Of a DNA stretch of 50,975 nt, positions 6,189 to 28,594 are shown piece after piece. Source of the stretch: Methanobacteriota archaeon. GTDB lineage: Archaea > Thermoplasmatota > Thermoplasmata > RBG-16-68-12. Each line of letters begins with the position of its first letter. The stretch's first letter is position 1. A program made the translations under genes and the position numbers. The stretch lies in the NCBI GenBank assembly GCA_005878485.1, contig VBMG01000040.1:1-50975 (forward strand). Reading direction: 5' to 3'. Under the pieces are notes generated by a model. The model saw only the letters and a program-made list of their open reading frames with translations. It did not search any database and was not told the DNA's origin.

Positions 6189-6191
6189 GCG

Positions 6192-12300: not shown

Positions 12301-13679
12301 GCTAGCAGGAACGCCGTCGCGCCGCCGCCCGTACCGCCGTTTCCGCCTCCGCCCGCGGTCACGCCCCCATTTCCCCCGAGGCCGCCGTGAAGGATTGAGA
12401 CGGTATTCCCGCCCGCATCCGCATTTTCAGCCGTGATGAAGAAGAGACCGTCCGCGTCGCCGCCGGCGCCGCCGTTGCCGCTCGAGGTGCTTCCCGTCGC
12501 TCCGGCCCCTCCGGCGCCTCCCGTTACCCCGTTGATCCCGTTCGTGTGTAGCTGTGTGAAGCCCGTCGTAACGGCCGCTTCGATCGCCGCGGCCGTGCCG
12601 CCGCTTCCGCCCGAACCCCCGTTCGTTGTCGTCGCGCCGCCGCCGCCGCTTCCGCCGGCTCCGCCCTGAAGATTCGTGATGGTATTGCCTGAGATGTACA
12701 CCCCCGAAGTCATCGCGACGACGATGCCCGCGACGGAACCGCCGTTGCCGCCACGGCCTCCCGTCCCGCCGGGATTCGTTTGGCCGTCGCCACCCCGCCC
12801 GCCGATCGCGGTGTCGACCGTGTTCGTCGTGATTGACGCCGATGGCGCGGCGTTCACGTAGATACCGAGGGCGAAGGCGCCGTCACGACCCGGGGCTCCG
12901 GGCGACAAGCCGTTGCCTCCGTTCGCTCCGCGGACGCCGGTGATCGTGTTCCCATCGATCGCCGCAGTGGCACCCGCGTTGACCAGGATTCCCACCGCGA
13001 AAACGCCGCTCACGTTCGTGATCGTGTTGCCCGAAATCGTCGGCGCGCTGGGTTGTTCGACCTGGATACCGAGACCCGTGCCGTTAATCGCGTTGCCGGC
13101 AATCTGAGCGTCGGAGGCGTTCGCGTAGATCCCGAGACTTGAAGCCCGTTTGATGACATTGCTCGTGACGAAGGCCGTGGACCGCACGAGGACGAAACCG
13201 GCCCCCGCTTGGAGGATCGTGTTGCTCGAGAGCGAAAGCGAGCTCGCCGTCGCGGTAACTGCGCGATCGACCCGATCGAAAGTAGACCATGAGATCGAGC
13301 CGGAGGAGCTCGCATTGAACTGGATGCCGCCCCACGTGATCGGCGAGCCCGTGTTGTTCGCGGTAAAGATGATCGCCCTGGTGGCGGTCCCGTCGGCGAC
13401 GAGCGAGCCCTCGATGAAGAGGTGGACTCCTGGATCGAACTTGACCGTCGTCCCGGGAAGGATGGTGAGCGTCGCAGGAGCGCGGACGGTGACATGGTAC
13501 GTTGCGACGTATATCGTATCGCTGATGCCCCACGTCGTATCCGTGGTGATGAGCCCCCGCACGTACGTGGTTGCGGTCGCCGTTGGCGCCGTCCATAGGA
13601 ACGCGGCGGTCGCGGAAGCAAGCAGCACCCAGACGATCATGAAAGTTCGGCCCAAGGTCGTCGTGGGGTGGGCACGCAT
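9351..13679 (-). CDS. Large single-pass surface protein: signal/anchor, parallel beta-helix repeats, Gly-rich repeats, 4 tandem Ig-like domains, SbsA-Ig-like domain, TM, cytoplasmic roadblock/longin-like module
   Basis: N-terminal hydrophobic segment FMIVWVLLASATAAFLW. PbH1-like repeats (IAGNAINGTGLGI, ISGNTITNV, IDGNTITGV). Periodic GGxGGxG blocks. Four ~95-aa repeats each ending in SIATDRAGNVE. TM YWWLFVIAAAGVAGTLFFLV followed by RRRSR. The C-terminal ~150 aa begins VFLLNAKDGLLIKH. A TATA-like ATAATATAG at 13744-13752 sits too close to GTG 13739, so ATG 13679 (GGAG upstream) is preferred. Confidence 0.8.
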   Translation of the reverse strand: MRAHPTTTLGRTFMIVWVLLASATAAFLWTAPTATATTYVRGLITTDTTWGISDTIYVATYHVTVRAPATLTILPGTTVKFDPGVHLFIEGSLVADGTATRAIIFTANNTGSPITWGGIQFNASSSGSISWSTFDRVDRAVTATASSLSLSSNTILQAGAGFVLVRSTAFVTSNVIKRASSLGIYANASDAQIAGNAINGTGLGIQVEQPSAPTISGNTITNVSGVFAVGILVNAGATAAIDGNTITGVRGANGGNGLSPGAPGRDGAFALGIYVNAAPSASITTNTVDTAIGGRGGDGQTNPGGTGGRGGNGGSVAGIVVAMTSGVYISGNTITNLQGGAGGSGGGGATTTNGGSGGSGGTAAAIEAAVTTGFTQLHTNGINGVTGGAGGAGATGSTSSGNGGAGGDADGLFFITAENADAGGNTVSILHGGLGGNGGVTAGGGGNGGTGGGATAFLLASVVGSASVGSSTMDTLTGGDGGRGAHGGYGGNATGVLSIGYNDGRFNATAMSFNLIQTVTGGVGGIGSKFGGNGGSAWGIAALYLAPTLDTNQVYTLQGGRGGDSLGPTNGGRGGDASGIVAGLVRYGVSLGDTISGVAKGAPGAGLPVQASYANGYYLVGNRSLTIRFTVENASLSSVGSYEFFVDNYTEGFAVNTPFTKLAVMAAGNLTVQNFLEVDALWPNGLTPVAGAHILVEDNGSPIWDRSSPSGIQPWILVTDRVYIDSPLPIDNVTRVTVTYSSYSFASDPRFVDMSTSHTEPFVMVDRDAPTSAATSLPTYENTQTFTIGYTASDGNGTGLRSITLWVRTGGGGWSPYATQPAGNLGQFTFTASADGVYEFATTADDLAGNVQSGPFANNTWTTVDTVRPGSHVNALSAYQNSASFLVSWAPDAGVTDIATYTIQYNLGTGWTNWLVGTTATSATFNSGNQGPIAFRSIATDRAGNVEVAPTGNDTWTIVDTIAPFSHTLPLPTYETSLGFMVSWGPQFDTLDIASYRVVVRDNGGSWSDWLVSTGTSATFTGQDGHTYEFRSIATDRAGNVEAPPAGNDSWTIVDVTPPNSIMTSLPAFENRLQFAVSWSQAAGTTDIATYTVLYDVGAGWTNWLVGTAATTGTFTASGQGVVAFRSIATDRAGNVEPAPAGNDTWTMIDITPPSVTDVRPVGADTNTTPWIRITFTEAMDRASVEQAFSISPAVDGSFQWSADSRSVTFVPTRELQSGTTYFVVVDTSARDLAGNTMVQSKTFQFATAQGFLASYWWLFVIAAAGVAGTLFFLVRRRSREPSRPSVKAASRSQDAIIEDVFLLNAKDGLLIKHETRRLRPDVDTDILSGMLTAVQAFVKDALRGDDLGELNEMTVGQMHILIGRGKWLVLAARIEGDGTESWTEQIERCIRDMEDHQWDQLEDWDGDMGLARVLAPYIKKLIQGGYAVAAATRPVRAVSAR
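10233..11384 (-). repeat. Four tandem coding repeats of ~285 bp (95-aa Ig-like domains)
   Basis: The core CGACGTTGCCCGCGCGGTCCGTCGCGATCGA recurs at 10271, 10556 and 10841, exactly 285 bp apart. A diverged fourth copy lies near 11120. Confidence 0.85.
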
Positions 13680-14097
13680 GTGTGACACGGACTCCGCAGC
13701 GAGGGTTTGCCCCGCCCTAGTCTCGCCCCGTTTCCACACGACGCTATATTATCCAAAGGATGCCGTTATCGCAGGTGATATCGAATTCGTGTCGGAATAA
13801 CGGCCCGAGCAGAGGGTGACGCGACAACCTTCAAGGTGTCGTGAAGGCTTGCGCGGTCGGTGGCCTCTCGCGCTCGATGCAATCTTCTCCGCGTCCTCCA
13901 TCGCCATCGTTGGCGCATCCCGACACCGCGGAAAAATCGGATCGACCTGAACCCGGTTATCGCGCTCGACGAGGACCTCGGCTATCGCACTGTCGACGCC
14001 CGGATGTCCTGGAACTCCCCGGGCCTAACCAGACGACATCGACGCCGGCCGCGCAACGCTTGTAGCCTTGGAACGCTATCCAGGGCAGGGAAGCCGC

Positions 14098-14472
14098 ATG
14101 ATCCAAATCGATGTCGACGTCCCGGATCGTCCGGGTGAACTCGCGAAGCTTGCCGCGATTCTCGGAGCGACGGGGATCAACATCGATGCAATCAGCGCGG
14201 AATCCGCGGGCGGGCGGTCGTACATGAGCCTGATCGTAAACCAGCCGATGCAGGCCCGCGAAGCGTTGATGAAGAACGGGTATGCGTCGGCGATGCGGAC
14301 CGTCCTCGTCGTGCGGCTTGATGACAAGCCGGGAGCCCTCGCCTCGCTCGCGCGCAAGCTCGGCGACTCGGGCGTCGATGTGGTGAGCCTGATCCACCTC
14401 GGCACCGTCGGCGGCCACGCCCAGATTGCGCTCGGCGTCGACAACCTGGAGAAAGCACGGTCCCTCGTCTGA
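14098..14472 (+). CDS. Tandem ACT-domain protein (small-molecule binding regulator)
   Basis: Two ACT-like halves: IDVDVPDRPGELAKLAAILGATGINI and VVRLDDKPGALASLARKLGDSGVDV. ATG at 14098 chosen over the 14068 extension. Confidence 0.7.
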   Translation: MIQIDVDVPDRPGELAKLAAILGATGINIDAISAESAGGRSYMSLIVNQPMQAREALMKNGYASAMRTVLVVRLDDKPGALASLARKLGDSGVDVVSLIHLGTVGGHAQIALGVDNLEKARSLV

Positions 14473-14602: not shown

Positions 14603-15298
14603 GTGCCGGAAGGTCATCGGGGCGGCCTCGGCGTTGTGCCGACGAATTTCACGACGCATGGACCGAAGACGGTCCCGCGCGTCGACTACGACCGGATCTT
14701 CGTCCTCGACGAGGACGCGAAGCTGCTTGGGGAATATGCCCTTCGAGACGACTGCCCGCTGGAATACGACGACCTTCGCCGAGCGATCCCCCTCAGCGGG
14801 ATGCGGCACCTTCTCTCCTTCTACCAGGGGGAATACGTTTTCACGCCATTCCGAGTGGGCGCCCTCTGGTTCGTCCTCTTGACCCAGGGCGTCCCCCGGA
14901 TCGAGGAGCGGGGCTCAATCGGAACCCTGCTGGCGGCGATGCGGGTCCACCTGCCGCCAAGCCTCTCGCCGACCCTCGCGGCACGGGAGGCGGCCCTCCG
15001 CGACCGGGAGCGCGAGCTGGAGGCTCGCGAGACGGTCGTGTCCAGGAAGGAGCAACGGGTCGTCCAACTCGAAGAGAAACTTGCGACGGCCAGGGAGAAA
15101 ACGGAAGACCTGGCCGCCGAGGTTCGCGCCCGCGAGAGCCGACTCAACGCGTTGCGCGATTACGCGATGGAGATACATCGGACATTCCAGCAAACCGAGT
15201 CGAGCGCGGGCCGCCCCGCGATTGCCGAAAGGGATTCGCCGGAGGACGGGGAACCGCCGCCGCGCTCACTTATCGCACGCCCTTCTCACGACCGATAA
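14603..15298 (+). CDS. Soluble paralogue of the cluster family: conserved ~90-aa module plus short coiled coil
   Basis: GTG at 14603 has GGAGG 8 nt upstream. RIFVLDEDAKLLGEYALRDDCPLEYDD aligns with the next gene and with the juxtamembrane region of the 3848-aa protein. A coiled-coil tail follows (RERELEARETVV...RLNALRDYAMEIHRTF). No TM segment. Confidence 0.65.
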   Translation: MPEGHRGGLGVVPTNFTTHGPKTVPRVDYDRIFVLDEDAKLLGEYALRDDCPLEYDDLRRAIPLSGMRHLLSFYQGEYVFTPFRVGALWFVLLTQGVPRIEERGSIGTLLAAMRVHLPPSLSPTLAAREAALRDRERELEARETVVSRKEQRVVQLEEKLATAREKTEDLAAEVRARESRLNALRDYAMEIHRTFQQTESSAGRPAIAERDSPEDGEPPPRSLIARPSHDR

Positions 15299-15391: not shown

Positions 15392-16798
15392 ATGCAAGGG
15401 GCGATTGAGACACTGCTTTCAGGCCTCCTGATTCAGGGCCTCCGCCCCGCACTCGCTTCGATCCTAATCACCGCTCCGATGAAGAAAGTGGCTCGTGCGC
15501 AGCTCAAGAAAATCTACGTCCTCGATGAACGGGGTGAGATGGCTGGCGAGTACGTCCTCGACCCGGACTGCCCGATCGACTATAACGATTTCTTGAAGGT
15601 CCTTCCGAACGAAGGGATCGGAGATCGCGATTCGCTCTTCGTTGGGGAGTACGTGTTCACCGCGTTTCAGAGCGGCAAGTACGTGTTCGTCCTCCTGTCC
15701 CGAGGACAGCTGGGCGCCGAGGATGTGGACTGGACGGCTTTGCTTCTGACCGCCACGGAGTCGACTCTCGTACGCGGACCGGCTCGCCCAGCACCGACCC
15801 GGGGAGCCGGAACTAAGTCGGACTCCGAGAAGGGTTTCGCCGATCGCGACGCCCGCCTCGTGGCGAAGGAAAAGAATCTCGCTGAGTTGGAAGCGCGCCT
15901 TCAAGCGGAAGCGGCAAATCTCACGGGTCGTCAGGAAGAACTCGACCGTCAGAAAGCCCGGCTCGCGGCTCTGGCCGATTACTCCGCGCGGATGCAAGAC
16001 ACCGTCGCGACCGGACTGTCACGATCTCGAAAGGAGCTCGAGACAGCGCAGCAACTCGCGGCCAAGTCGTCTGCCGACTCGAAGACGACGGAGTCGAAGG
16101 CGGCCACGGACGCACGGCAGTCGTTCGAGCAAGAACGTAAGGCGCTCGTCGCTGCGAAGGCGGAACTCGAAGCGAAGGACCGGGAGGCAACCGCGCGTAT
16201 CGCGAAGCTCGAGCAAGATGCCAAGGATGCCATGTTGGCCCTCGAGAAGGAGCGAACGGCAAACGCCACACGAGCCGCGGAGGAAGAAAAGACCCGACGC
16301 GAAATCGAGGGCCGCGTCGCCGATTTGAGTCAGCGGTTCACATCGATCGCCAAGGAGCGCCTGGTATCGTCCCACCGCCCCGCGGAGGAAGCATCGGACG
16401 AGGTCCGGAAGGCGATGGAGGGCGAGAAAGCGGAGGTTGCCCGAGAGCGGAAGTTCCTTCAACGCCGGGCAATCGAGCTGCTGGACCGTGAGGACCGGGT
16501 TCGAGACCGTGAGGTCCATGTCGATGAACGCGAACAGGACTTCGCTCGGCGGGAGCAAGAGCTTTCGTCGCGCCAACAGGATTTCGAACGGCAGCGCACG
16601 CTCTTGGCCCAGGCGAAGCCCCAGCCTCCGGAGGTCCGGACGGAGCCGGACGAAGCGAAACGCGATATCGAGCGGCGTGTGAAAATCATCCAGCAGAAGG
16701 CACTCGAACTCTTGGACCGCGAGGAGAAACTCCGAAAACGGGCGGCGGAACTCGAGGCGATGGAGGCCCGGCTCTCCGGAAACGTCGCCGCCGATTAG
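15392..16798 (+). CDS. Cluster-family paralogue: conserved module plus ~330-aa coiled coil with twin C-terminal motif
   Basis: KIYVLDERGEMAGEYVLDPDCPIDYND module. Heptad-rich E/R/K/A/L sequence. Two motif copies, FLQRRAIELLDREDRVRDRE and RVKIIQQKALELLDREEKLRKR, shared with the 3848-aa protein. An alternative start is ATG 15479 (MKKVARAQ); the first 29 aa are hydrophobic. TAG stop. Confidence 0.7.
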   Translation: MQGAIETLLSGLLIQGLRPALASILITAPMKKVARAQLKKIYVLDERGEMAGEYVLDPDCPIDYNDFLKVLPNEGIGDRDSLFVGEYVFTAFQSGKYVFVLLSRGQLGAEDVDWTALLLTATESTLVRGPARPAPTRGAGTKSDSEKGFADRDARLVAKEKNLAELEARLQAEAANLTGRQEELDRQKARLAALADYSARMQDTVATGLSRSRKELETAQQLAAKSSADSKTTESKAATDARQSFEQERKALVAAKAELEAKDREATARIAKLEQDAKDAMLALEKERTANATRAAEEEKTRREIEGRVADLSQRFTSIAKERLVSSHRPAEEASDEVRKAMEGEKAEVARERKFLQRRAIELLDREDRVRDREVHVDEREQDFARREQELSSRQQDFERQRTLLAQAKPQPPEVRTEPDEAKRDIERRVKIIQQKALELLDREEKLRKRAAELEAMEARLSGNVAAD

Positions 16799-17047: not shown

Positions 17048-20000
17048 ATGAGGCCCGCGACGGCGCTGCTGCTCGTCTTCGTGCTCATCGCGACCGCTGG
17101 CCTCGCGGTGGCGGAACAGAAACTGCTGGATCCCTTCGCTGCGTTCCGCGGTCCCGATGGCTCCCTTCACATTCCCGGTTCCGCCCTAACGAACAATCTG
17201 CTCCGGGCGTTGTTCGGACCCAGGCCGGATCCGAACGCTCCGATCCGGCTCGCGGAGCGGGTGCCGTCGCCCTATCCGACCCTTGCAATCCGAATCGTCG
17301 AGATGGAATTTCCACAGCAGCCATCGTTTCGGTTTGTCCTTCGAATTCAGGATATCATTGGTTCGGTCAACCATGGCCTCAGCGCCGCCGCAAATGCGAT
17401 CACCGCGATAGGCCGCGCTGCGATCGCTGCTTTCTTCAATTTCCTGACGTCGGATGCGGCTGCCGCCGTGAACGTGGACACGACAACGGTTGCGGACGTG
17501 TTCCCTGCCGCCACCACCTGCACGACATCGCAGTCCGCGACGGCTGCGGATAACGGCGTTCTCGTGATGCTATCGGAACGTGGGACGACCACGTTCGCCT
17601 CCGTCACGTATGGATCGACAAGCCTCACCTTGGTCGCAGGCACAGCGGCGAACGGTGGGACTGTTGTACGAACGGAAATCTGGGGGTTCACGGGGACCCT
17701 TCCCGGAGGGCTTCAGACGATGACGGCGACCCTCTCGGGAGGCCAGACGGCGAAGATGAGCTGTGCGACGATCCTGCTACAGGGCGTGAGCCCGACTGGC
17801 TCGTTCATCCGGGGGACGAACAATGCCGCGAATTCGACGAACGCAAGCGTCACGCTTCTGGGGACGGTAGCGGTCGGAAATCTCGCCTTCGCCGTCGCCG
17901 TGCTCCAGCAGACCAACGGCGGGGCTCAGCCGACGGCGGTCACCGGTACAGGAGCTACGGCTACGGACCTGTACGGGGTCGCGGTCGGCCACTGCACGAC
18001 AGGGGCCTCCGCTGCATCGAACGAATGTGCCGCCGGGTCGGATATCCCGAACCCGGGCACCGCAATCACTTGGACGAACGCGGCCACGCAGTGGGTGGTC
18101 TCCGCCGTCGAGGTCGTGGCAGCTCCGCCGTGCGGAAACGGGAGCGGATTGTGCTACCGGATTGGGAACGGCGGCGCCTGGAATAGCGCCTCCAACTGGT
18201 CGAACTCCTCCGGAGGAGCCCCGTGCAGCTGCACTCCCGCGGCGACCGATGTCGCCGTCTTCAACGCGAATCCGACTGGAACGGTTACGCTGGCCGCAGC
18301 GACGACAATCGGCGGCATCGACATGACCGGATTCACGGGGACGCTCGACACGACCGCAGCGAACAGTTGGGCACTAACCGTGAACGGCAACTTCCTAGTC
18401 CAAGGGACATTCCTGGCTGAGAATTCGGCAGTGTCCGTCAGCGGCAACGTCGGCATCGTCTCCGCGGGAACGATCGTCAATCTCGGCGGATCGACGTGGA
18501 CCGTGAATGGGACCTGGACGAACGCTTCGACCTCATCGTCCTGGGTTGCGGGGACGAGCACGGTGACGATTGCCGATGCCGGAAATGCGACCCTAACCTT
18601 CGCCGCACTCACCGGGGGGACGAACGAGTTCAATAACATGACTCTCGACTCGATCGCAATTGGCGGTGCCGTGTATACGATGGCCATCAATGCGGTCCGC
18701 ATCGGAGCGGTCTTGACCGTCCGAAATTCAACGGCCGGCGCCACCGGCCCAACGATTTTGGACACATCGGGCTCCAACCTCGCGGTTACCGCTGGCAGTC
18801 TCGCCCTTTCCCTGCTCGGGAGTGTATCGGCAAACGGGTCTACGGTAACGATCAATGGGAACGTGACTGTCGGGGCGGCGGGCGCCTACTCGACCATGGG
18901 GACCTCCGTGTGGACCGTCACGGGCACGTGGACGAACGCCTCGACGTCCGCATCCTGGAGTGCCGGGACGAGCACGGTCACGTTCACCAGCGCGACGGGC
19001 GGGACAATGACGTTCGCGGGTTCGAACCTCGCCGGGAGCGAGTTCTACAACGTCGCATTTGCGTCTTCGGCGGCCTCCGCACAGACGTTCACGATGTCGA
19101 CGCGGGGATTGAATTGGGGCGGAACCCTCACCGTCTCGGATGCCTCGTCCTCGACCCAACTGGCCACGGCGAACCTGTCCCTAACCGGCGGAGGCCTGGT
19201 CATCGGCAACGGGGGCATCTTGACGGCCAACGCTTCGTCGGCATCCGTCTCGAGTGTGTCGATGACGGGAGGCACGAGCGGCACAATCACCTTGACCACG
19301 GGTACCGTCACTGACTCCGGAAACTGGGACACGAGCGGGGCCGGTTCGGTCTTCACGAAGGGGACCAGCACGGTCACGATGACGGGCGTGAGCAACATCG
19401 CGGTGCGAAATGCGAGCAACAACTTCAACAACCTGACCATCTCCACCGCCGGTGCCGTCACCCAGACGGGCCTCGTGGATGTGTCCGGGACGCTCGGTGT
19501 GAATGCGGGCGCGACCCTGGCGACCGGCACACAAACGCTCACCGTCGGCGTTCTCGCGGCAAACATGGCCGGGGGGATCACGGCGGGCCCCTCGGGCACG
19601 AAGACGATTGGGGGAAACGTGAGTATCGCCGCGGCGGGCTTCTTCAATTTCGGCGGGGCAACCTGGAATTTCAGCGGCGCCTGGACGAACGCCTCGACGA
19701 GCGCGTCGTGGGCACCGGGTACCGGGAACGTGGTGTTCCGCGATGCGGCAAGTCAGACGATGACGTTCAAAGCGTCCGGGACAGAGTTCCCGAATCTGAC
19801 GCTCGACACGACCGCCGTCGCAGGGATCACGTACACGATGGCAACGAATCCGCTCAATTCCGGAGGCACGCTCACGATCCAGAACAGCGTGGTCGGTCCC
19901 ACCGGGAACACGATCCTCACGACCGGCGCGAGCGGCCTCGGGATCACGGCGGCGGGCATCACGATTGGCATCAACGGAACGCTGACCGCGAGTTCCTCGA

Positions 20001-23000
20001 CGATTACAGACAACGGCAACTGGACCTCGACCGCGACGAATGCGACGCTGAACAAAGGCACGTCCACGGTCATCTTCGGAGCCATGGGGACGATCACGCT
20101 TGCCGCCGGACAGAGTTTCAACAACATGACCCAGGGCGCTGGGACGAGCACGTTGGGCGCCGCGCTCACCGTCACCGGCTTGCTCACGGTCAACGGCACG
20201 CTCAGCACGAGCGCGAGCAACTTCGCGCTCACGGCCCAAGGCGGGCTTACTGTGGGCGGCTCCGTGGTCGCGGGGACGTCCACTGTCGCGGTCACCGGGA
20301 GCGTGAACATCAGCGTAGCTGCAGGCTTCATTACCTCGTCCGCAGTCGGTTCCTGGACGGTGACGAACGGCAACTGGACGAACGCCTCGACCTCCGCCTC
20401 GTGGAACTTCGCCGCGCCCATCACGTTCACCTCGAGCGTCGCGCGAACGATGACCTTCGCCGGCGCGAACCTGAGCGGCAATGAGTTTGCCGGCACGGTC
20501 ACGTTCGACTCGAGCGTCGCGGCCGGAGTCACGTACACGATGGCAAGCCGAGGACTCGTCCTAGGCGGTTCGGTGCTGATCCGGAACACAGCGGGTGGAG
20601 CGACGGGCTACACCGTCCTGGATTCCTCGCCCTCCAACCTCTCGCTCACCGTTGGATCGCTCAGCCTCGCAAGCTTTGGAGCCATTAACACGCGACTCTC
20701 GACGGTTGCGGTGGGTGGGAGCGTCACCATGGGCGCCCCGAACACCTACGTGACGAACGCAGGCGGATCGTGGACGGTCAGCGGTCCCTGGACGAACGCG
20801 TCGACGTCCGCTTCTTGGAGCTTCGCGGCGCCGATCATGTTCAATTCGTCCGCCTCGCAGACGATGACGTTCGCGAGTCTGACCCAGGAGTTCACGGGCA
20901 ACGTCACGTTTAATTCCGGCGCGGCCACGGTGACCTACACGATGGCCTCGAACGCGCTCACCACCGGCGGGACGCTCACCGTCTCCGGCGGCGCCGGGAC
21001 CACGACCCTGAGCACGAGCAGCTCCAATCTTCCGATTTCTGCTGTCGCACTGAACGTGGGCGCCGGCGGCAGTCTGGCCGCCAACGGGTCGCTCATCACC
21101 GTCACATCGGTGGACACGCATCTCGGCACGTTTGCGGTTGGGACATCCACCGTCGTCATCGGTGCCTCGGGCGGCACGGTCAACGTTCCTCAGACCTTGT
21201 ACAACCTAACGGTCAATTCGGGCATCAACACGACGTTCGTCTCGAACCTGGCTTGGTCTGCGATCCTCACACTGACGGGCGCCGTACCAACCCTCAACGG
21301 CAACCTCTCCTCCGTCGGACCGGCGACCCTTACCATGACGTCGTCGACGACATCGATCGCGGGGTCGTGGAACACGTCCTCGACCGTGGCTCTCGCATCG
21401 ACCGGCTCTTCGGTCACGTTCACGGGCGCGGCCCAGACGATCACGCTTGGGGTGAGCCAGCAATTCAATTCCTTGACGATTGCCGGGAGCATCTCCGTCG
21501 CGTCGAACCTCACCGCCACGAGCCTCACCGTGAACGTCGGGAGCACGTTGACGAAGACGGGTCACACCATCGTCTTCAACAGCCTCACGGTCAACGGGAC
21601 GATCGCCGACGGATCCGTCAACGTCTCGAACCTGACCGTGACGAACAGCGATGGGACGGCCCTCGTGACGATCTCCGTCTTCAGCGGATGGACAACGGGG
21701 TCTTCCTACGCGTGGACGCATACGTCGAACGAGGCGTCGCAGACGATCACATGGACGATCGGAGGGAACGTCGTCGGAAATCAGTTCAACGTGACGAAGA
21801 ACGGGTCGCCCTTCGCGAGCGGCACGGTCAGTGGCTCCGGCCAAGTCGTCTTCACGATGTTAGGTTCGGATCCGACTATGCAGGTGAGTCTCGGCGCGCC
21901 GTGTGCGGCCAACCGGTATTGGGTCCAAGGGAACGGCAACTGGAATGACACGAACCATTGGTCCGGCTTTTCCGGCGGAGGCTTCGGTTGTTCGGTTCCC
22001 GGGTCCTCGAACGCTGTCTTCTTCGACGGCAGTTCCGGGTCGGCCACGGTCACGATCAACGCCAATGCCTCCATGGCATCCCTGAACACAACGGGATTCA
22101 GCGGCACAATTGCGATTGGAGTCTACGACGTCTCGATTGGCGGCAATGTCATTCAGGCGGGCGGGACAATCACGATTGGCGCGTCGAACGGAAATGGGCT
22201 CGCGGTCAACGGCTCGCTGACCCTTTCCGGGACCGCGAGCATCCAGATGAGTGGCGCGTCGAACGGATCCGTATCAGGAAACGTCACCATCTCGTCCCCG
22301 ACCGCGTTCATCGCGTTTGGGAGCGGCACGTGGACCGTGATCGGTTCTTGGAGCAACTCCTCCTCGAGCAACTCATGGGCCGCGGGGACCGGGACCGTGG
22401 TGTTTGCTGCCGGTTCGCCGCAGGTCATGACCTTTGGGAATCTGACAATCTCCGAATTCTACGACATCCAGATCCGTCCTCCGGCCGCAACGACGTTCAC
22501 GATGGCGACGAACGGCCTGCAGTGGAGCGGGACACTCACCCTCAGCAGCAACGCGACCCTCGTGACGGCAAACCTTGCCCTCACGGGAGGGAATCTCATC
22601 GTCGGCAACGGAGCCGCGCTGACCGCGGGGACATCCGCCGTGGGTGTCGCCAACGTCGCGATGACCGGAGGGACCTCCGGAACCATCACGGCTTCGGGCT
22701 CGTGGACCGTGTCCGGAAACTGGGACACGTCCGGCGCAGGCTCTGCATTCGTCGGTACCTCAGCAACGGTGCTCCTGACCGGAAACGGCGTCACGGTTCG
22801 CATCCTAGACGCCGCGAATGGCTTCGGCACCCTCACAATCACGGGCTCGGTCTCGGCGGCATCTGCAATCGTCGTAGCGGCCCTCCTGACGGTGAACGGC
22901 ACCTTCGATACGACCGCGGCCAACTACGCCCTCACGATGGGCGGCGGGCTGACGCTCGGCGGAGCCAACGCGACCCTCCGGACGCAGGCCTCGAATGTCT

Positions 23001-26000
23001 CCATCACGGGCAACGTGACTGTCGCGAACGCCTCCGGGGTCATCGGGTCGGCGAGCGGCGGCTCGTGGATCGTTTCGGGCTCGTGGACGAACGCGTCCTC
23101 GTCCGCATCTTGGAGCTTCTCGGCCCCGATTACATTCAACTCGTCGTCGGCTCGGAGCATGATGTTCGCGGCCCTTCCGTCCGGCAACGCCGAGTTCGTC
23201 GACGTGACATTCGACGGCGGCGCATCGACGGTCACGTACACGATGGCGGCAAACACCCTTGTCTGGTCCGGCACTCTGCGCGTCCAAGGCGGGAGCGGGA
23301 CCACGACTCTCGTTACCGCCAATCTTGGGCTCGCCGGTGGCTCTCTAACAATTGGCAACGCCGGCATCCTGATGGCCTCCGGCTCACCCGTGATCGTATC
23401 CAACGTCACGGTGACGGGCGGCAGCTCTGGAGTGATCATCGTGACGAGTGGGAGCTGGACCGTACTCGGTAACTGGGACAGCTCCGGCGTGGGCTCCATA
23501 TTGACCGCGGGAACCTCGACGATGACCTTTGCCGGGACATCCAAGACGATTTCCCTTGCGCCTGTCCAAGCGTTCAACCGCGTCACGATTGCCGGGACGA
23601 CCTCGATGTCGTCCACATTGACGGCTGCGACACTGACGGTGAATAGCGGCGCGATCCTGACGAAGACCGGCCACGGCATCGTCTTCAACGCGTTGACCGT
23701 GAACGGGACGATCGCGGACGGATCCGTGAACGTCTCGAACCTCACGGTGACGAACAGCGACGGGACGGCCCTCGTCACCATCTCCCTCTTCAGCGGATGG
23801 TCAACCGGATCCTCGTATGCGTGGACGCACACCTCGAGCGAGACGACGCAGACGATCACGTGGACGATCGGAGGGAACACGGCCGGGAATCTGTTCAACG
23901 CAACGAAGGACGGGTCGTCCTTCGCGAGTGGCGCGGTCAATGGGTCCGGACAAGTCGTCTTCACGATGCTCGGGTCGGATCCGGACATGAAGGTGACCGT
24001 GACTCCGCCGCCCATCCCGGCGTGGTGGCAGTCTCCCTACGTGCTCGCCGTTCCGCCGATCGGCGTGTTTCTGGTGGTAGCCATGTTTGCGCAGCGCGCG
24101 CGCTGGAGGCCCGCGAAGGCCTTCCTTGTGGACGAACGCGGTCGAATGCTCAGGGAATTCACCCTGGACCCGTCCTGTCAGGTCACGTACGACCAGGCAG
24201 TGGGGGCGGGCGTGCTCGACGCGGTCGAGAAGCCCATCAAGGTCGCGAAGTACCACGGCCAGACGGTCCGCGGGGACGCCCTCGCTGTCGTCCTTCTCGC
24301 CTACGGGCCAGTCACCGCGGAACAGGTCGGATTCGCACGGGAGATGCTCGTCCAGGTCCAAGATAAATTCGAGGACGCCGTCAAGCAGCGGCTCGAGGAG
24401 GTCCGGAGCCAGGAGGCCACCCTCCAGGCCGAGGCAAAGAGCGTCGAGGAACGGCAACACGCCCTCGAAATCCGAGCGAGCGAAATCGAATCGACGATGA
24501 AGCAGATTGAAGCCGCGCAATTGAACGTCGCCAGCGACAAGGCGGGCCTGGAAGCAACGGAGGGAGACCTGAAGCGCCGGGAGGCGGAGTTAGCGGAGAG
24601 CCGCCGGTCGACCGACGAACTCGCGCGGCAACTCGAGGAGAAGCAGAAATCGCTCGAGACGCGCGCAGTGGAAATTGCGGCCCAGAGCGATGCGGTCGAC
24701 GCGAGGACGGAGGCTATCCGGGCGCGCGAAGAGACCGCCACCGCGCTCGATGCGGAACTGCGGCGGAGAAACGAGGCAGTCACGAGCCAGGAGACCAGTC
24801 TGAAAAACGAGGCGGACCGGGTGGCGGCCCAGGACTCGTCCGTCCGAGCACGGCTCGAGGAGGCGGAGCGACGCGAGGCGGGAGTTCGAGATGGTGAAAC
24901 GGCCTTCGCGGCGAACCGCGAGAAGTTCGAGGCCGACCAGAAGGAGCTGATGGAATTCAAACGATCAATCGAAAATCGGGTCGCCGAGGTCGATGCGGCA
25001 GAACAGTCGCTCGCGAACAGGGAGAAAACGCTGGACGCTCGCGAGGCGCGGATCACCCCCGTCGAGGCCGACCTCACGCGCCGTGAAGGCGCGACCACGC
25101 AACTCGAGGAGGACCTGGCCGGCCGAAAGGTCCTCATGCAAGCCGCGAGGAAGGAAATCGCCGAACGCAGCACCGATCTGGAAACCAGGGAAGCGGCTCT
25201 CGCTCGCGGAACCGAACAGGTTGAGACGGCTCGACGGTCCCTCGAGACCGAACGCCGCACGATCGAAGAGGTTCAGCAACAGGCCCGACAGGCGTTCGAG
25301 GCGGCACAGAGCCTCGAGGCCGCCACGTTGGCGAGGTCGAAAGACCTCGACCTTCGGGAGACCCGAATCGCGCCCGCCGAGCGACAACTCGACGAGCGGA
25401 CGAAGGAACTCGACGCGAGGCAAGCGGATTTGGCGTCTCGGGACGAACAGCTGGCGGCGAGAGCCCAATCCTTGGACACAGCGACGCAGGAACTCGGAGC
25501 CCGGGATCAGAGTCTGCAAGAAGATCAGGTGGTCCTCGGAGAGGCCCGGGCCGCCTTTGAGGCCGATCGACGAGAACTTCAAGACGAGGTCGCCCGGCAC
25601 GAGTCGGAAGTCCGTCGACGCAAGGCCGACCTAGACGCCCAGGCCAAGACCTTGGGTGAGGATCAACTCCGCATGGCCCAAGACCGGGAGGCCTTCGATG
25701 CATCGCAGGCGGAGAAGAATCAGGCAATCCTTTCCCGAGAAATCGAGCTCGAGGCGCGGGAACAATCCCTCCGGGAGAAGGAAGGGGCCGTGCGGGGGCA
25801 AGCCGAAGAGAACGCGCGACGGCTCACGGAGCTGGCTGCTCGAGAGGAATCTTTGGAAATCGAGGGTGCGAAGCTCGACAAGGCCCGCGCGGAACTTGAC
25901 GCGCGGAAAGTCGGCCTCGCCGACGTCGCGAAGGAACTCGATGGAAAGGCGGCCCGACTCCGGGAGGAGGAAGCGAAGCGGGCTGAAGAACTCCGCACCT

Positions 26001-28594
26001 GGCAAGGAACCCTCGAGTCCGAACAGGCGCTACTGAAACAACAGCGGGAGACGTTTGAGGAGGAGGCCTCGACCATGCGGACTGCCTGGGCAGATCGGGT
26101 CATGCGAATCGAGGCCCAAGAGGTCGACCTCGAGGAACGAGAAGAGCGAGTCCGTGGGGACACCGATCGGATTGCCCGGACCGAGGAGGAGCTTAAGCGC
26201 CGCGAAACGGCCGCGGAGGGGGCCGCCCAGGTCGCCTCCCAGATGAAAGAGGAGGCGGAACGAATCCGACGCGAGAGCGAGCAGCGGCTCCTGGAAGTCG
26301 AGTCGAGAGAGCGGGCCCTCCGGGAGGAGGCCGCGCATCACGCGATCGAGCTCACGAAGGAGACGGAACGGTTGAACGCAATCGAAAGCGACCTTGCCGG
26401 GAAACGGTCCGAGTTCGAGCAACTGCATACTGCCCGTACCGCCGAGCTCCGCCAGACGGAAACGGAGCTCGAGAAGAACGCCCAAGCGCTCGATGCGAAC
26501 GGGCGTGAGCTCGCCGAGCGAGAGAGCCGGCTCGTTGCAAGGGAGGAAACAGTACGGCAATCCGAGCTCCGACTTCAGAGGGAACACGAGGACGTCCAAG
26601 CCGGAGCGAAGCAACTCGAATCGCGGGAGCTCGAGCTTACGCAGTTGAAGGACCGATACGACTCCGAAGCCGCGCAAATCCGCAACGAGCTCGAGGGCAT
26701 GCGCCAGTCGGTCGCGGCCAAGGAGACGGAACTCCGCGCGGAGCGAGAACGGATCGAACGGGACTCGTCCGCGCTTCAAGAGACCCTTGGTGCGAAGGCG
26801 AAGGAAATGGCGCTGCGGGAGAAAGCGCTCACCGCGCGAGAGGAAGAATCCCGGGCCGACGAGCAGGAGCTCGAGGCGCGAGGACGGGAGCTGGAGTCGA
26901 AAGAACGCCAGACGGAAGCGCGGACGACCGAACTCTCGGCCCAGGCGATGGCACTCATCCGACGGGAACAGGACCTCAACACGCGCGCGGCGCAAATTGA
27001 GCAGACGGTCCGCAGGGTCGAAACCGAAGCCGCAGAGAAGCGTCGGGAGTGGGAATCCGTCCAAGCGACCTTGCGATCGCAGCAGGCCCAACTGACCGCA
27101 ACGGCGGAGACTCGCGCGGCGGACTTGGCGAAACGAACCCAGGAAGTCGAGGGACGCGAAAGGACCCAACGGGCATGGTTCGCCCAGTTTGAGCTGGAGC
27201 GGTCCAAAGTCGACGCGCAGGCGAAGGCCGTCGCCGCCAAGTCGGCGGAGGCGGAGGCCGCATGGCAACGCTCCGAGGCGCGCCTCGCCGAGCTGAAGAC
27301 GAAGGAGAACGAGACCCTTCGTGCCCGTCAAGCGTTCGAATCGGAACGCTCTACCTGGGCCACCCGCCGAGCCGAAGAGCTGAAACAGCTTGAAGCCACG
27401 CGGGATGCGGCCGGGCAGCAGGCACAGCAGGCCGAACGGCTGGTTTCCGAATCTCAACGCCGCGCGCTAATCGCCGAGGAGGCGGAACGAGCCGCGAAGC
27501 GACAGGCGGCGGATCTCGCGACGCAACAGACTTCCCTTGAGAAACGCCGGTCGGAAGCCGAAAAGGCGGAGCACGATGCGCAGGCGCACATCGCCCAGCT
27601 TCAAGAGGCTTCGCGCAACTTGGCCATGAAAGAAATGAACATCGCGGCAGCGACCAAGGATCTCGAGGCACGGCAGTCGCGGATCTCCGCGTCGGAGCGG
27701 GAAGTCGCGAGCCGCGAGGCGGACCTCCGTTCGAAGAAGACGTCGGTGGATCAGGATGCAGCGCGCGTCGCCGCCCTATCCGAACAGCTCGCGACGCGAC
27801 AGCGAGACTTGGAATCTCGGACGGCGAGCCAGGAGGCGAAGTCCGCGCAGATGTCAAGCAAAGAACAGACGCTCGCGACCGAGCTCCAGCGAGCGGACAA
27901 CTTGATGGAGGACCTCGATAAGAAGGAGCGGGAGATTCGGGCCCGCGATGAGGCCTTGAAGGCATCCGAGGCGACCTTGACGGCTCGAGAAAGCGAAGTC
28001 ACCGCTCGGGACGCCGAGCTTCGGGACGGCACCCGGGGCCTCGAAAAACTTCGCCAGGAGTTGAACGGCCAGCGAGCAGCGACGGAAGAGGCCCGCCGGG
28101 TCGCGGACACGACGCGCGAGGAATCGGAAGTGATGAAACGCGACGCGGAAAAGCTCCGGGCCCAAGCCGGTGCGATGCAGGCGGAGGTCGCCACAAACCT
28201 GCGATTCCTCCAGAAAAAGGCCCTCGACGTGCTCGATCAAGAGGAGAAGATCCGGGATCGTCTCACGCGTATCGAGGAACGAGAGAGGTCTCTGGACGCG
28301 CGGGCGGAAATCCTCGAAGGGAAGGAGCGGACCCTGACGGATGACCAGGCCGATCTCGACGCGAAGACGGCGAAACTGCAGGCGGAGATTGACCGGCTCC
28401 AAGGCCGCCTGGCGGATGCCGAGAAAGCCGGCGGCCCATCCACGGCCGCGATGGAAGAGTGGAAGAAAGATGTCGAGAACCGCGTGAAAATCATCCAGAA
28501 GAAAGCGATGGACCTGCTGGACCGCGAGGAGAAGCTTCGCAAGAAGGAGGAAGAGCTCCGCGCCCTCGCGGAGCAGCTTGGCGCGAGCCGCTGA
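17048..28594 (+). CDS. Giant (3848 aa) single-pass membrane protein: signal peptide, ~2300-aa repetitive extracellular region, TM, conserved cytoplasmic module, ~1400-aa coiled coil
   Basis: Uninterrupted 11.5-kb ORF. Signal peptide MRPATALLLVFVLIATAGLAVA. Seven modules marked by G-WT(V)-G-WTNASTSASW...GTSTVTF, with many N-x-S/T sequons. TM at about 24030-24092 (YVLAVPPIGVFLVVAMFA) followed by RARWR. KAFLVDERGRMLREFTLDPSC module. Continuous E/R/A/L/Q heptad-like sequence runs to the C-terminus, with the twin motif FLQKKALDVLDQEEKIRDR and RVKIIQKKAMDLLDREEKLRKK. Confidence 0.85.
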   Translation: MRPATALLLVFVLIATAGLAVAEQKLLDPFAAFRGPDGSLHIPGSALTNNLLRALFGPRPDPNAPIRLAERVPSPYPTLAIRIVEMEFPQQPSFRFVLRIQDIIGSVNHGLSAAANAITAIGRAAIAAFFNFLTSDAAAAVNVDTTTVADVFPAATTCTTSQSATAADNGVLVMLSERGTTTFASVTYGSTSLTLVAGTAANGGTVVRTEIWGFTGTLPGGLQTMTATLSGGQTAKMSCATILLQGVSPTGSFIRGTNNAANSTNASVTLLGTVAVGNLAFAVAVLQQTNGGAQPTAVTGTGATATDLYGVAVGHCTTGASAASNECAAGSDIPNPGTAITWTNAATQWVVSAVEVVAAPPCGNGSGLCYRIGNGGAWNSASNWSNSSGGAPCSCTPAATDVAVFNANPTGTVTLAAATTIGGIDMTGFTGTLDTTAANSWALTVNGNFLVQGTFLAENSAVSVSGNVGIVSAGTIVNLGGSTWTVNGTWTNASTSSSWVAGTSTVTIADAGNATLTFAALTGGTNEFNNMTLDSIAIGGAVYTMAINAVRIGAVLTVRNSTAGATGPTILDTSGSNLAVTAGSLALSLLGSVSANGSTVTINGNVTVGAAGAYSTMGTSVWTVTGTWTNASTSASWSAGTSTVTFTSATGGTMTFAGSNLAGSEFYNVAFASSAASAQTFTMSTRGLNWGGTLTVSDASSSTQLATANLSLTGGGLVIGNGGILTANASSASVSSVSMTGGTSGTITLTTGTVTDSGNWDTSGAGSVFTKGTSTVTMTGVSNIAVRNASNNFNNLTISTAGAVTQTGLVDVSGTLGVNAGATLATGTQTLTVGVLAANMAGGITAGPSGTKTIGGNVSIAAAGFFNFGGATWNFSGAWTNASTSASWAPGTGNVVFRDAASQTMTFKASGTEFPNLTLDTTAVAGITYTMATNPLNSGGTLTIQNSVVGPTGNTILTTGASGLGITAAGITIGINGTLTASSSTITDNGNWTSTATNATLNKGTSTVIFGAMGTITLAAGQSFNNMTQGAGTSTLGAALTVTGLLTVNGTLSTSASNFALTAQGGLTVGGSVVAGTSTVAVTGSVNISVAAGFITSSAVGSWTVTNGNWTNASTSASWNFAAPITFTSSVARTMTFAGANLSGNEFAGTVTFDSSVAAGVTYTMASRGLVLGGSVLIRNTAGGATGYTVLDSSPSNLSLTVGSLSLASFGAINTRLSTVAVGGSVTMGAPNTYVTNAGGSWTVSGPWTNASTSASWSFAAPIMFNSSASQTMTFASLTQEFTGNVTFNSGAATVTYTMASNALTTGGTLTVSGGAGTTTLSTSSSNLPISAVALNVGAGGSLAANGSLITVTSVDTHLGTFAVGTSTVVIGASGGTVNVPQTLYNLTVNSGINTTFVSNLAWSAILTLTGAVPTLNGNLSSVGPATLTMTSSTTSIAGSWNTSSTVALASTGSSVTFTGAAQTITLGVSQQFNSLTIAGSISVASNLTATSLTVNVGSTLTKTGHTIVFNSLTVNGTIADGSVNVSNLTVTNSDGTALVTISVFSGWTTGSSYAWTHTSNEASQTITWTIGGNVVGNQFNVTKNGSPFASGTVSGSGQVVFTMLGSDPTMQVSLGAPCAANRYWVQGNGNWNDTNHWSGFSGGGFGCSVPGSSNAVFFDGSSGSATVTINANASMASLNTTGFSGTIAIGVYDVSIGGNVIQAGGTITIGASNGNGLAVNGSLTLSGTASIQMSGASNGSVSGNVTISSPTAFIAFGSGTWTVIGSWSNSSSSNSWAAGTGTVVFAAGSPQVMTFGNLTISEFYDIQIRPPAATTFTMATNGLQWSGTLTLSSNATLVTANLALTGGNLIVGNGAALTAGTSAVGVANVAMTGGTSGTITASGSWTVSGNWDTSGAGSAFVGTSATVLLTGNGVTVRILDAANGFGTLTITGSVSAASAIVVAALLTVNGTFDTTAANYALTMGGGLTLGGANATLRTQASNVSITGNVTVANASGVIGSASGGSWIVSGSWTNASSSASWSFSAPITFNSSSARSMMFAALPSGNAEFVDVTFDGGASTVTYTMAANTLVWSGTLRVQGGSGTTTLVTANLGLAGGSLTIGNAGILMASGSPVIVSNVTVTGGSSGVIIVTSGSWTVLGNWDSSGVGSILTAGTSTMTFAGTSKTISLAPVQAFNRVTIAGTTSMSSTLTAATLTVNSGAILTKTGHGIVFNALTVNGTIADGSVNVSNLTVTNSDGTALVTISLFSGWSTGSSYAWTHTSSETTQTITWTIGGNTAGNLFNATKDGSSFASGAVNGSGQVVFTMLGSDPDMKVTVTPPPIPAWWQSPYVLAVPPIGVFLVVAMFAQRARWRPAKAFLVDERGRMLREFTLDPSCQVTYDQAVGAGVLDAVEKPIKVAKYHGQTVRGDALAVVLLAYGPVTAEQVGFAREMLVQVQDKFEDAVKQRLEEVRSQEATLQAEAKSVEERQHALEIRASEIESTMKQIEAAQLNVASDKAGLEATEGDLKRREAELAESRRSTDELARQLEEKQKSLETRAVEIAAQSDAVDARTEAIRAREETATALDAELRRRNEAVTSQETSLKNEADRVAAQDSSVRARLEEAERREAGVRDGETAFAANREKFEADQKELMEFKRSIENRVAEVDAAEQSLANREKTLDAREARITPVEADLTRREGATTQLEEDLAGRKVLMQAARKEIAERSTDLETREAALARGTEQVETARRSLETERRTIEEVQQQARQAFEAAQSLEAATLARSKDLDLRETRIAPAERQLDERTKELDARQADLASRDEQLAARAQSLDTATQELGARDQSLQEDQVVLGEARAAFEADRRELQDEVARHESEVRRRKADLDAQAKTLGEDQLRMAQDREAFDASQAEKNQAILSREIELEAREQSLREKEGAVRGQAEENARRLTELAAREESLEIEGAKLDKARAELDARKVGLADVAKELDGKAARLREEEAKRAEELRTWQGTLESEQALLKQQRETFEEEASTMRTAWADRVMRIEAQEVDLEEREERVRGDTDRIARTEEELKRRETAAEGAAQVASQMKEEAERIRRESEQRLLEVESRERALREEAAHHAIELTKETERLNAIESDLAGKRSEFEQLHTARTAELRQTETELEKNAQALDANGRELAERESRLVAREETVRQSELRLQREHEDVQAGAKQLESRELELTQLKDRYDSEAAQIRNELEGMRQSVAAKETELRAERERIERDSSALQETLGAKAKEMALREKALTAREEESRADEQELEARGRELESKERQTEARTTELSAQAMALIRREQDLNTRAAQIEQTVRRVETEAAEKRREWESVQATLRSQQAQLTATAETRAADLAKRTQEVEGRERTQRAWFAQFELERSKVDAQAKAVAAKSAEAEAAWQRSEARLAELKTKENETLRARQAFESERSTWATRRAEELKQLEATRDAAGQQAQQAERLVSESQRRALIAEEAERAAKRQAADLATQQTSLEKRRSEAEKAEHDAQAHIAQLQEASRNLAMKEMNIAAATKDLEARQSRISASEREVASREADLRSKKTSVDQDAARVAALSEQLATRQRDLESRTASQEAKSAQMSSKEQTLATELQRADNLMEDLDKKEREIRARDEALKASEATLTARESEVTARDAELRDGTRGLEKLRQELNGQRAATEEARRVADTTREESEVMKRDAEKLRAQAGAMQAEVATNLRFLQKKALDVLDQEEKIRDRLTRIEERERSLDARAEILEGKERTLTDDQADLDAKTAKLQAEIDRLQGRLADAEKAGGPSTAAMEEWKKDVENRVKIIQKKAMDLLDREEKLRKKEEELRALAEQLGASR
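21413..21886 (+). repeat. Copy 1 of an intragenic 474-bp duplicated segment
   Basis: Encodes ...LTKTGHTIVFNSLTVNGTIADGSVNVSNLTVTNSDGTALVTISVFSGW...VVFTMLGSDPTMQV. Long identical nucleotide runs are shared with 23522..23995, offset exactly 2109 bp (703 codons). Confidence 0.85.
23522..23995 (+). repeat. Copy 2 of the intragenic duplicated segment
   Basis: Encodes ...LTKTGHGIVFNALTVNGTIADGSVNVSNLTVTNSDGTALVTISLFSGW...VVFTMLGSDPDMKV, immediately before the TM segment. Confidence 0.85.

Follow-up and report, generated by a model that had tools for sequence, protein, structure and literature searches.

A stretch of 50,975 nucleotides (contig VBMG01000040.1 of assembly GCA_005878485.1, positions 1 to 50,975, assigned to the Thermoplasmata), analysed as a whole and called here the window, carries on its forward strand at 17048-28594 a giant gene that encodes 3848 amino acids (aa) followed by a stop codon. 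The product, referred to below as the giant, is predicted to consist of a signal peptide, an ectodomain of about 2300 aa, one transmembrane (TM) helix, a compact juxtamembrane module and a heptad-periodic cytoplasmic tail of about 1400 aa. The genes around it are ordered as AAA ATPase, deacetylase, 1462-aa surface protein (reverse strand), ACT-domain gene, parA, parB, giant, Cys/Met pyridoxal phosphate (PLP) enzyme (reverse strand) and ZIP transporter. This order is conserved across metagenome-assembled genomes (MAGs) and, in part, in a clade that is only 44% identical.

A preliminary description of this DNA had claimed a single uninterrupted open reading frame (ORF) of 11.5 kb, and this was borne out: one frame of 3848 codons runs from an ATG over 17048-28594 (+), and the G+C content of its third codon positions (GC3) is of coding type throughout (0.73-0.84 over the full length). 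The many ORFs of 100-480 aa in other frames are the usual by-product of 64% G+C. The worry expressed at the time, that so long a frame might be an artefact of assembly, has also been answered. An assembly chimera or a non-functional ORF could be suspected from the MAG origin of the sequence and from two MAG loci in which the ectodomain frame is split into overlapping frames while the tail frame is intact, L002 (1-2919 and 2711-7957) and L003 (1647-6515 and 5621-14161). However, the same order of parts, TM junction included, was assembled in at least 10 independent assemblies. The DNA repeats within the gene are only 60-81% identical, the longest being 300 nt at 72%, with no near-identical copies, and they are thus too diverged and too short for a repeat collapse to be likely. 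The GC3 is of coding type along the whole gene, and conservation is distributed as under purifying selection. An artefact is therefore hardly credible, and the 3848-residue giant is a real, conserved membrane protein.

The most hydrophobic Kyte-Doolittle window of the giant is found at aa 4-22 and ends in AVA|EQ, in agreement with the cleavable-looking signal peptide that had been noticed earlier. As read from the sequence, the predicted peptide covers aa 1-22 (17048-17113, +; MRPATALLLVFVLIATAGLAVA, then EQ). The only other strong hydrophobic segment with basic residues behind it, aa 2329-2349 (SPYVLAVPPIGVFLVVAMFAQ), is assigned by hydropathy as the single TM helix. A single helix followed by RARWR had been described and is retained, but its coordinates are 24032-24094 (+) instead of the 24030-24092 given before. 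The basic stop-transfer sequence RARWR (aa 2350-2354; 24095-24109, +) is conserved as R-x-R-W-R/K in all orthologues. By the positive-inside rule, the basic flank of a TM helix faces the cytoplasm, and the residues behind RARWR are accordingly placed in the cytoplasm. The giant is thus predicted to be a type-I membrane protein with about 2300 aa outside and about 1500 aa in the cytoplasm. Short independent metagenome fragments (for example P0010, P0004 and P0001) bridge the junction of ectodomain, TM helix, module and coil.

Scanning one genome per GTDB species led to 11 orthologous loci, all of them in soil Thermoplasmata MAGs (the EA_n series from meadow soil, two SMAG genomes and one further MAG). 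Open frames with the same order of parts encode 4439-4496 aa in L004, L005, L007 and L008, 2795 aa in L009 and 2297 aa in L010. When 1.84 billion cluster representatives were searched exhaustively with a profile of the module, further complete proteins came to light, of 4767, 4099, 2874, 2840, 2818, 2348 and 2099 aa, each beginning with a signal peptide and ending in the C-terminal motif described below; P0052, P0053 and P0055 are full-length orthologues. A word-indexed protein search found the TM helix and module only in fragments of 100-227 aa, so that full-length relatives were reached only by the genome scan and the profile search. The search for relatives that had been proposed thus uncovered full-length ones in independent soil MAGs, in which the proposed order of ectodomain, one TM helix and very long heptad-periodic cytoplasmic tail is kept. 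The cytoplasmic part measures 1387-1411 aa in seven close orthologues and about 1507 aa in a second clade, and more distant giants bear tails of 795-1289 aa. Ectodomain length varies across the giants from about 900 to 3260 aa, with changing domain content.

Conservation within the giant is highest in the approximately 95 residues behind RARWR, with a mean pairwise identity of 0.65-0.74. They hold the juxtamembrane module (aa 2355-2444; 24110-24379, +), which AlphaFold2 (AF2) modelled from an alignment of 43 sequences with a predicted local distance difference test score (pLDDT) of 89 as beta-beta-alpha-beta-beta-beta-alpha. The strands occupy model residues 6-14, 19-24, 49-51, 54-60 and 64-71 and the helices 33-38 and 76 onwards, the last helix continuing into the tail. 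When this model was compared with the PDB by Foldseek, only longin and roadblock proteins were recovered (E 0.008-0.1, probability about 1, query-normalised TM-score (TMq) up to 0.55). The neighbours are the AP-3/AP-2 mu longin domains, zeta-COP, sigma-adaptin, Asgard Roadblock2, the C-terminal domain of LokiRagO, MglB, MglC, SRX and LAMTOR; AP-3/AP-2 mu longin and zeta-COP are the top matches, with a best E of 7.6e-3 and most values at 0.02-0.1. The order of strands and helices is that of longin domains rather than the roadblock order alpha-beta-beta-alpha-beta-beta-beta, as the model opens with two strands and the TM helix ends 5 residues earlier.

At the sequence level, searches of Pfam, NCBIfam and PDB with the whole giant, the module and the C-terminus returned only sub-threshold coiled-coil noise (RNase_Y_N, SMC, HA2), and no family match for the module. 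Robl_LC7 (PF03259) matched none of the 43 module sequences at E <= 1 and nothing in the whole giant, and a single one of the 43 matched Fuz_longin_1, weakly (E = 0.2). The profile search mentioned above collected just 99 clusters with the module. Judged by these comparisons, the module defines an unannotated domain family for which neither Pfam nor NCBIfam has a model.

Two smaller genes directly upstream encode paralogues. ParB (468 aa; 15392-16798, +) comprises, by sequence comparison, a hydrophobic N-terminus, a module, a coil of about 330 aa and the same double C-terminal motif as the giant, whereas parA (about 231 aa; 14603-15298, +) consists of a module and a short coil and has no TM helix. 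The true start of parA is probably the GTG at 14603, which is preceded by GGAGGT 8 nt upstream, since the parA ORF as a whole reaches far upstream, into the 3' end of the ACT gene. This small ACT-domain gene (14068-14472, +) lies directly upstream of parA, an arrangement kept in L009, L012, L013 and L018. ParB is found directly upstream of the giant in L003-L005, L007-L010, L012, L013, L017 and L018 and parA is syntenic in L009, L010, L012, L013 and L018, so that the three genes form an array that is syntenic across MAGs.

The C-terminal motif is the second most conserved segment of the giant after the module. The last approximately 130 aa contain two copies of a hydrophobic-rich LQKKA(L/M)D(L/V)LD(R/Q)EEK sequence (NLRFLQKKALDVLDQEEKIRDR ... 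NRVKIIQKKAMDLLDREEKLRKKEEELRALA; 28196-28591, +), colinear with the C-terminus of parB, to which they are 38% identical (E = 3e-20). Every giant and most of the small family members carry the motif. As parB has both the module and this motif in common with the giant, it can be seen as a miniature of the giant's cytoplasmic part. The module probably pairs with a second domain of its kind, either its own copy or that of parA or parB.

The 1499 aa behind the TM helix are 41% charged, with a net charge of about -60, one sequon and three prolines; the heptad tail itself (about 1400 aa, 1408 in the composition count) has 35 Gly. Hydrophobic autocorrelation in the tail amounts to 0.46 at lag 7, 0.39 at lag 14 and 0.37 at lag 21 and is absent at lags 3 and 4, with spectral peaks at 3.5 and 7.0. 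When the register was assigned without a bonus for basic residues, position a was found to hold L 45%, V 12%, A 12% and I 9% (88% apolar plus Ala), and position d R 27%, L 11%, A 10% and K 8% (33% apolar plus Ala, 35% Arg plus Lys), with Glu predominating at b, e and g. Basic residues make up 29-44% of position d in nine giants versus 18-20% overall, an enrichment with P <= 1e-6 in eight of the nine (35-44%), the remaining one being P0037 (29%, P = 7e-4); it is weaker in the small paralogues. The tail thus has the apolar heptad periodicity of a canonical two-stranded coiled coil but not apolar residues at both a and d, and is to be described as a heptad rod with Leu at a and Arg/Lys at d rather than as a textbook coiled coil. 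A classical two-stranded coiled coil is nonetheless plausible. The tails might associate along the Leu stripe, helped by contacts between Arg and Glu, or each might be an unusually stable single helix.

Three segments can be distinguished in the tail. Segment I (aa 2445-2850; 24380-25597, +) is, by register, a run of 57 unbroken heptads; the segment is poorly conserved and varies in length, with a pairwise identity of 0.22-0.30 and 105-aa indels between orthologues. It includes a block of 105 aa, or 15 heptads (aa 2668-2772; 25049-25363, +), that alignment gaps show to be absent in the closest orthologues. The tail matches itself here without gaps at an offset of 105 (29% identity), with Pro2671 and Pro2776 standing 105 apart, and on this evidence the block is an old tandem copy of the one that follows it. 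Segment II (aa 2851-3480; 25598-27487, +) is composed, according to its stutters and a repeat alignment, of about five super-repeats of approximately 120 aa, each with two stutters (spaced by about 86 and 34 residues) and a recurring RE[AT]FE motif, and bears islands of conservation at 0.5-0.64. Segment III (aa 3481-3716; 27488-28195, +) is again a long heptad run by register.

It had been proposed that the tail runs to its end without obvious breaks. This holds insofar as no non-helical linker is found, yet the register shifts at about 12 stutters of 4 residues (at ~2854, 2890, 2976, 3008, 3094, 3127, 3218, 3247, 3321, 3354, 3442 and ~3775 in window equivalents), whose positions recur in 16 orthologues, even where identity falls to 37%. 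The register is unbroken from aa 2445 to 2846 (402 residues) and from aa 3353 to 3716 (364 residues), and the stutters lie between these two runs. Many of the tail indels among orthologues are multiples of 7 (7, 14, 35, 63, 105). Three other patterns were considered and set aside. The stutters are seemingly mirror-symmetric about aa ~3100, as in an antiparallel hairpin, but the pattern is that of a repeat with a period of about 120 aa (86 + 34), which is trivially symmetric, and length changes in the two halves do not compensate each other among orthologues. A tail-wide periodicity of 105 aa came down to a weak bump at offsets 105/112 and one clear duplicate, the remaining self-matches being generic heptad similarity. 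Finally, a 28/3-residue charge periodicity in segment II (power 9.3) was marginal after multiple testing and was not used as evidence.

The same features bear on what shape the tail might take. One alternative is a chain of helical-bundle repeats of about 105-120 aa, spectrin- or EzrA-like, that would form an arch of about 60 nm along the membrane. The repeat and indel units of about 105-120 aa come near the 106 aa of a spectrin repeat, the 35 Gly of the tail would suit such a chain, and a precedent is offered by EzrA, in which an N-terminal TM helix is followed by spectrin-like repeats. However, the heptad phase is kept over stretches of 402 and 364 residues, in which almost all a positions are hydrophobic and no loop-like gaps occur, and the discontinuities are 4-residue stutters and not loops, so that we regard bundles as improbable. 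A continuous helix of about 1400 residues at about 0.15 nm each would be about 200 nm long, the length originally estimated. This value can stand as an upper bound only, since it presupposes one straight, unbroken helix and the tail has conserved stutters, 35 Gly and repeat units of about 105-120 aa. Nor is there a basis, in Thermoplasmata, for the further statement that such a rod would match or exceed the cell in size: described cells of this group measure roughly 0.3-5 µm, and 200 nm does not exceed what is typical of them.

A rod of about 200 nm pointing into the cytoplasm could also serve as a golgin- or nesprin-like tether or ruler, with the C-terminal motif capturing a cargo such as the nucleoid, a membrane or a protein body at a set distance. 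Tail length is indeed tight within clades, a run of 57 heptads is unbroken with very few Pro, and the second most conserved motif is located at the far end of the rod. Nevertheless, length steps of 105 aa near the membrane and the much shorter tails of the distant giants argue against a strict ruler. Moreover, the C-terminal motif is also found on paralogues of 300-470 aa, which makes self-association of the family its more likely role, and there is neither homology to golgins or nesprins nor the same membrane topology. A tether of this kind is accordingly considered quite unlikely.

The ectodomain (aa 23-2327) consists of 16% T, 13% G, 13% A, 13% S and 7% N, S and T together making up 29%, with only 4.5% charged residues (D+E+K+R). 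It contains 67 N-x-S/T sequons, compared with 48.2 +/- 5.6 in shuffled sequences (z = 3.35). The enrichment is real yet mostly compositional. The ectodomain is probably N-glycosylated. All seven of the WTNAS-marked motifs reported initially were located, as W-x-G-x-WTNAS(T/S)S at aa 484, 622, 873, 1103, 1242, 1762 and 2007.

The N-terminal head region (aa 23-360; 17114-18127, +) has no Pfam or NCBIfam match. It is 46-48% identical in L004-L008, and a different N-terminus is found in L009, L010 and P0052. Behind it, motif positions delimit super-module 1 (aa 361-1617; 18128-21898, +), with a Cys-capped start (PPCGNGSGLCYRIGNGGAWNSASNWS), S/T/G/N-rich repeats, five WTNASTS motifs and a terminal unit of about 100 aa. 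Super-module 2 (aa 1618-2326; 21899-24025, +) was modelled by AF2 as a beta-solenoid followed by a beta-sandwich. In this model, made of aa 1615-2326 from 36 sequences (pLDDT 83, predicted TM-score (pTM) 0.77), a run of strands of 3-5 residues precedes a seven-strand sandwich at model residues 628-705; the choice between beta-helix and Ig fold that had been suggested as a check thus came out as a modelled solenoid plus sandwich. Both super-modules open with a Cys-containing '(R)Y.(I/V).GNG.WN...(N/H)WS' cap and close with a unit of about 100 aa. As the two are 48% identical in alignment, super-module 1 would be a solenoid as well, by homology to the modelled one. The longest Foldseek alignments of super-module 2, none of them significant, were to right-handed beta-helix proteins (Ag43, IgA1 protease, Hbp, SepA, EspC, tailspikes and tapirin), and the sandwich aligned, again non-significantly, to CBM6/35- and Ig-like domains. 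Relatives of the repeat region are unnamed, confined to the same lineage and without a Pfam model. Other ectodomains occur on the same tail: CBM96, DUF1349 and Disaggr_repeat in P0052 and P0057, and a region annotated 'DNRLRE domain-containing' in P0037. By this domain content, ectodomains are swapped between orthologues while the tail is conserved.

Taken together, these data lead us to a tentative explanation, which may well be right but is held with reserve, in which the giant of this soil archaeon is a variable, adhesin- or glycan-binding-like surface fibre permanently joined to a scaffold on the inner side of the membrane, which would hold the fibres in place and set their spacing. It takes its footing from the integrity of the frame, the topology signals, the fold predictions, the periodicity, the conservation, the synteny and the shared end motifs. 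A Sec signal peptide would export about 2300 aa, presumably glycosylated, which would form two super-modules, each of them a long beta-solenoid with a beta-sandwich at its end. One helix would cross the membrane and, five residues on, the longin/roadblock-fold domain would sit against the inner face, where it may dimerise with its own copy or pair with the modules of parA or parB. Its last helix would run uninterrupted into approximately 1400 residues of charged heptad helix with Leu at a, Arg/Lys at d and Glu at b, e and g, in which the defined stutters and conserved islands would give a rod of fixed geometry. At the end of the rod, the double hydrophobic motif in common with parB may associate tail with tail and so bundle them into a network at the cell cortex. 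The variable ectodomain (beta-solenoid here; CBM96, DUF1349 or DNRLRE in orthologues) would supply binding specificity in what we infer to be an adhesive role, and the conserved tail would act as a chassis for anchoring, spacing or mechanically coupling the fibres at the surface.

Several observations weigh against this explanation. The fold assignment of the module is consistent yet statistically weak, as the Foldseek E values show, and the search with the super-module 2 model yielded no significant match at all (all E >= 0.13, TM 0.17-0.25). The Arg/Lys at d would also be compatible with a tail that forms a lone stable helix and no coiled coil, and tail indels of 5, 11 and 18 residues are not multiples of 7. 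Finally, the split ectodomain frames of L002 and L003 could reflect assembly error or gene decay.

The 1462-aa surface protein encoded divergently to the giant (9351-13739, -; syntenic in L013) comprises, according to Pfam, a NosD beta-helix, a Gly-rich GGxGG region, fn3/Big_5 domains, a TM helix and a cytoplasmic domain of about 140 aa. In L016, which belongs to a more distant genome, the giant homologue P0057 (10001-17047) has no parA/parB upstream and lies divergent to a 1801-aa BNR/VWA/Big_5 surface protein (4480-9885, -), a pair that echoes the one in the window. An hhalign comparison of the neighbour's tail-domain profile (14 sequences) with the module profile gave a suggestive probability of 74% (E = 2.8e-5), whereas the single neighbour sequence gave 3%, which is not significant. 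Among homologues of the neighbour's domain, P0237 is fused to a bona fide Robl_LC7 domain and P0236 has a weak Robl_LC7 match within the domain itself. The neighbour's cytoplasmic domain possibly shares the superfold of the giant's module, which suggests that surface proteins of this lineage commonly bear roadblock/longin-type juxtamembrane domains.

In another explanation, the giant would be a transmembrane receptor or polarity hub: the ectodomain would sense contact, the module would be a platform (GTPase-activating protein (GAP), guanine nucleotide exchange factor (GEF) or anchor) for a small GTPase, and the tail would recruit effectors. Nearly all fold neighbours of the module are GTPase-platform domains (MglB, LAMTOR, the LokiRagO C-terminal domain, SRX, AP mu/sigma and zeta-COP), the presence of three paralogous modules side by side recalls roadblock/longin platforms of the hetero-oligomeric kind, and the fusion of the neighbour's tail domain to a true Robl_LC7 in P0237 points the same way. 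Yet no small GTPase was found among the coding-like ORFs scanned over the 51-kb window (a few short ORFs were not scanned, and whole genomes were not searched), nor beside the homologues in L014, L016, L017 and L018. The module has no Pfam longin or Robl_LC7 sequence match, and a rod of 1400 aa with conserved stutters would be left unexplained. We hold such a hub to be rather unlikely. The favoured fibre-and-scaffold explanation can be extended to include a GTPase, in the form of an archaeal 'adhesion-to-cortex' linker: fibres would be coupled, both mechanically and in terms of information, through a GTPase-recruiting longin/roadblock platform to a lattice of Leu/Arg-zipper rods made of the giant, parA and parB. 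This lattice would be a cortical skeleton in Thermoplasmata with an origin outside the Asgard-eukaryote line. It would be a functional analogue of integrin/dystroglycan-spectrin or of linker of nucleoskeleton and cytoskeleton (LINC)-type coupling, a speculative proposal of low probability.

The host is archaeal: elsewhere, the window encodes GatD/GatE, a GHMP kinase that resembles diphosphomevalonate decarboxylase and mevalonate-3-kinase, and an AAA ATPase whose OB domain is of the proteasomal ATPase type. The gene at 21-986 (+) is diphosphomevalonate-decarboxylase-like with a weak mevalonate-3-kinase C-terminal match, consistent with a Thermoplasma-type mevalonate pathway and with the taxonomic assignment. 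Directly downstream of the AAA ATPase gene (6192-7871, -) a gene of the Pup-ligase family was found (4893-6188, -; Pfam Pup_ligase E = 1.8e-87). Pupylation is regarded as a bacterial system, and no Pup-like ORF ending in GGQ or GGE was seen within 3000-9500. A LAGLIDADG homing-endonuclease ORF (3738-4676, -) lies between M16 peptidase genes and the Pup-ligase gene. The promoter and terminator scans used bacterial-type models and are uninformative for an archaeon.

Many Thermoplasmata have no rigid wall, and to our knowledge it is largely unclear how these organisms keep their shape, organise their surface and adhere. The giant is a conserved, genome-encoded candidate for a physical link between a variable surface fibre and a long internal rod, made by way of a longin/roadblock-fold domain, and it may tie surface adhesion to an internal skeleton. 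Leu at a with Arg/Lys at d is an unusual and strongly conserved heptad design. If the tails do form a lattice, they would be a new type of archaeal cytoskeleton. The longin/roadblock fold organises membrane traffic and polarity in eukaryotes and in Myxococcus; should the module bind a GTPase, such platforms would extend to membrane receptors in a non-Asgard archaeon. The fold of the module, the two upstream paralogues, the common C-terminal motif and the swapping of ectodomains are new with respect to the preliminary description.

No account of this family turned up in the literature searches, and term searches within papers that deal with these soil Thermoplasmata gave no mention of it. Its parts appear to be of known kinds, namely a beta-solenoid fibre, a longin/roadblock fold and a stuttered heptad rod; their combination in this order seems to have no described counterpart in the literature and family libraries searched. 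The golgin/nesprin comparison made at the outset is no more than an analogy of shape: no kinship in sequence or fold was found, and the topology differs. Golgins such as giantin and nesprins share with the giant a single TM anchor, a very long cytoplasmic helical rod and giant size. However, their TM helix is at the C-terminus, they have little or no luminal part and the nesprin rods consist of spectrin repeats, whereas the giant is type I, with a 2300-aa ectodomain, a TM helix ahead of the rod and an archaeal host; GRIP/GRAB, spectrin-repeat and CH domains were absent from its Pfam scan.

Longin domains (AP mu/sigma, zeta-COP, SRX) and Roadblock/LC7 proteins (MglB, LAMTOR, Asgard Roadblock2) have the two-layer alpha/beta fold that is predicted for the module. 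Unlike in these proteins, the module is placed directly between a TM helix and a 1400-aa helix, and the scanned neighbourhood has no GTPase gene. The longin R-SNAREs (Sec22, Ykt6, VAMP7) likewise unite a longin domain, heptad sequence and one TM helix in one polypeptide, but with the TM helix C-terminal, a SNARE motif of 53 residues versus 1400, and no sequence similarity. With regard to the ectodomain model, long beta-solenoids are also found in beta-helix adhesins and passengers (Ag43, SPATE autotransporters, tapirins) and in phage tailspikes, although the scores were non-significant. In contrast to autotransporters, the giant is anchored by a TM helix and a cytoplasmic tail without a beta-barrel translocator or TPS partner, and its repeats are lineage-specific; the archaeon has, as far as we know, no outer membrane.

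For the tail, the nearest likeness is with crescentin, FilP/Scy, TipN, EzrA and Mycoplasma HMW2, which are long heptad rods with conserved stutters in membrane-associated skeletons. Matches of the giant family to coil families (SMC, Mplasa_alph_rch, CRWN_N, HmpF) are sub-threshold and of the composition type. In the terminal organelle of the wall-less Mycoplasma, adhesins are coupled to a coiled-coil core inside the cell. In these prokaryotic scaffolds, none of which has a longin-like module, adhesin and rod belong to separate proteins, whereas in the giant a surface fibre and a rod are predicted to be parts of one polypeptide, with a longin-like module between the membrane and the rod.

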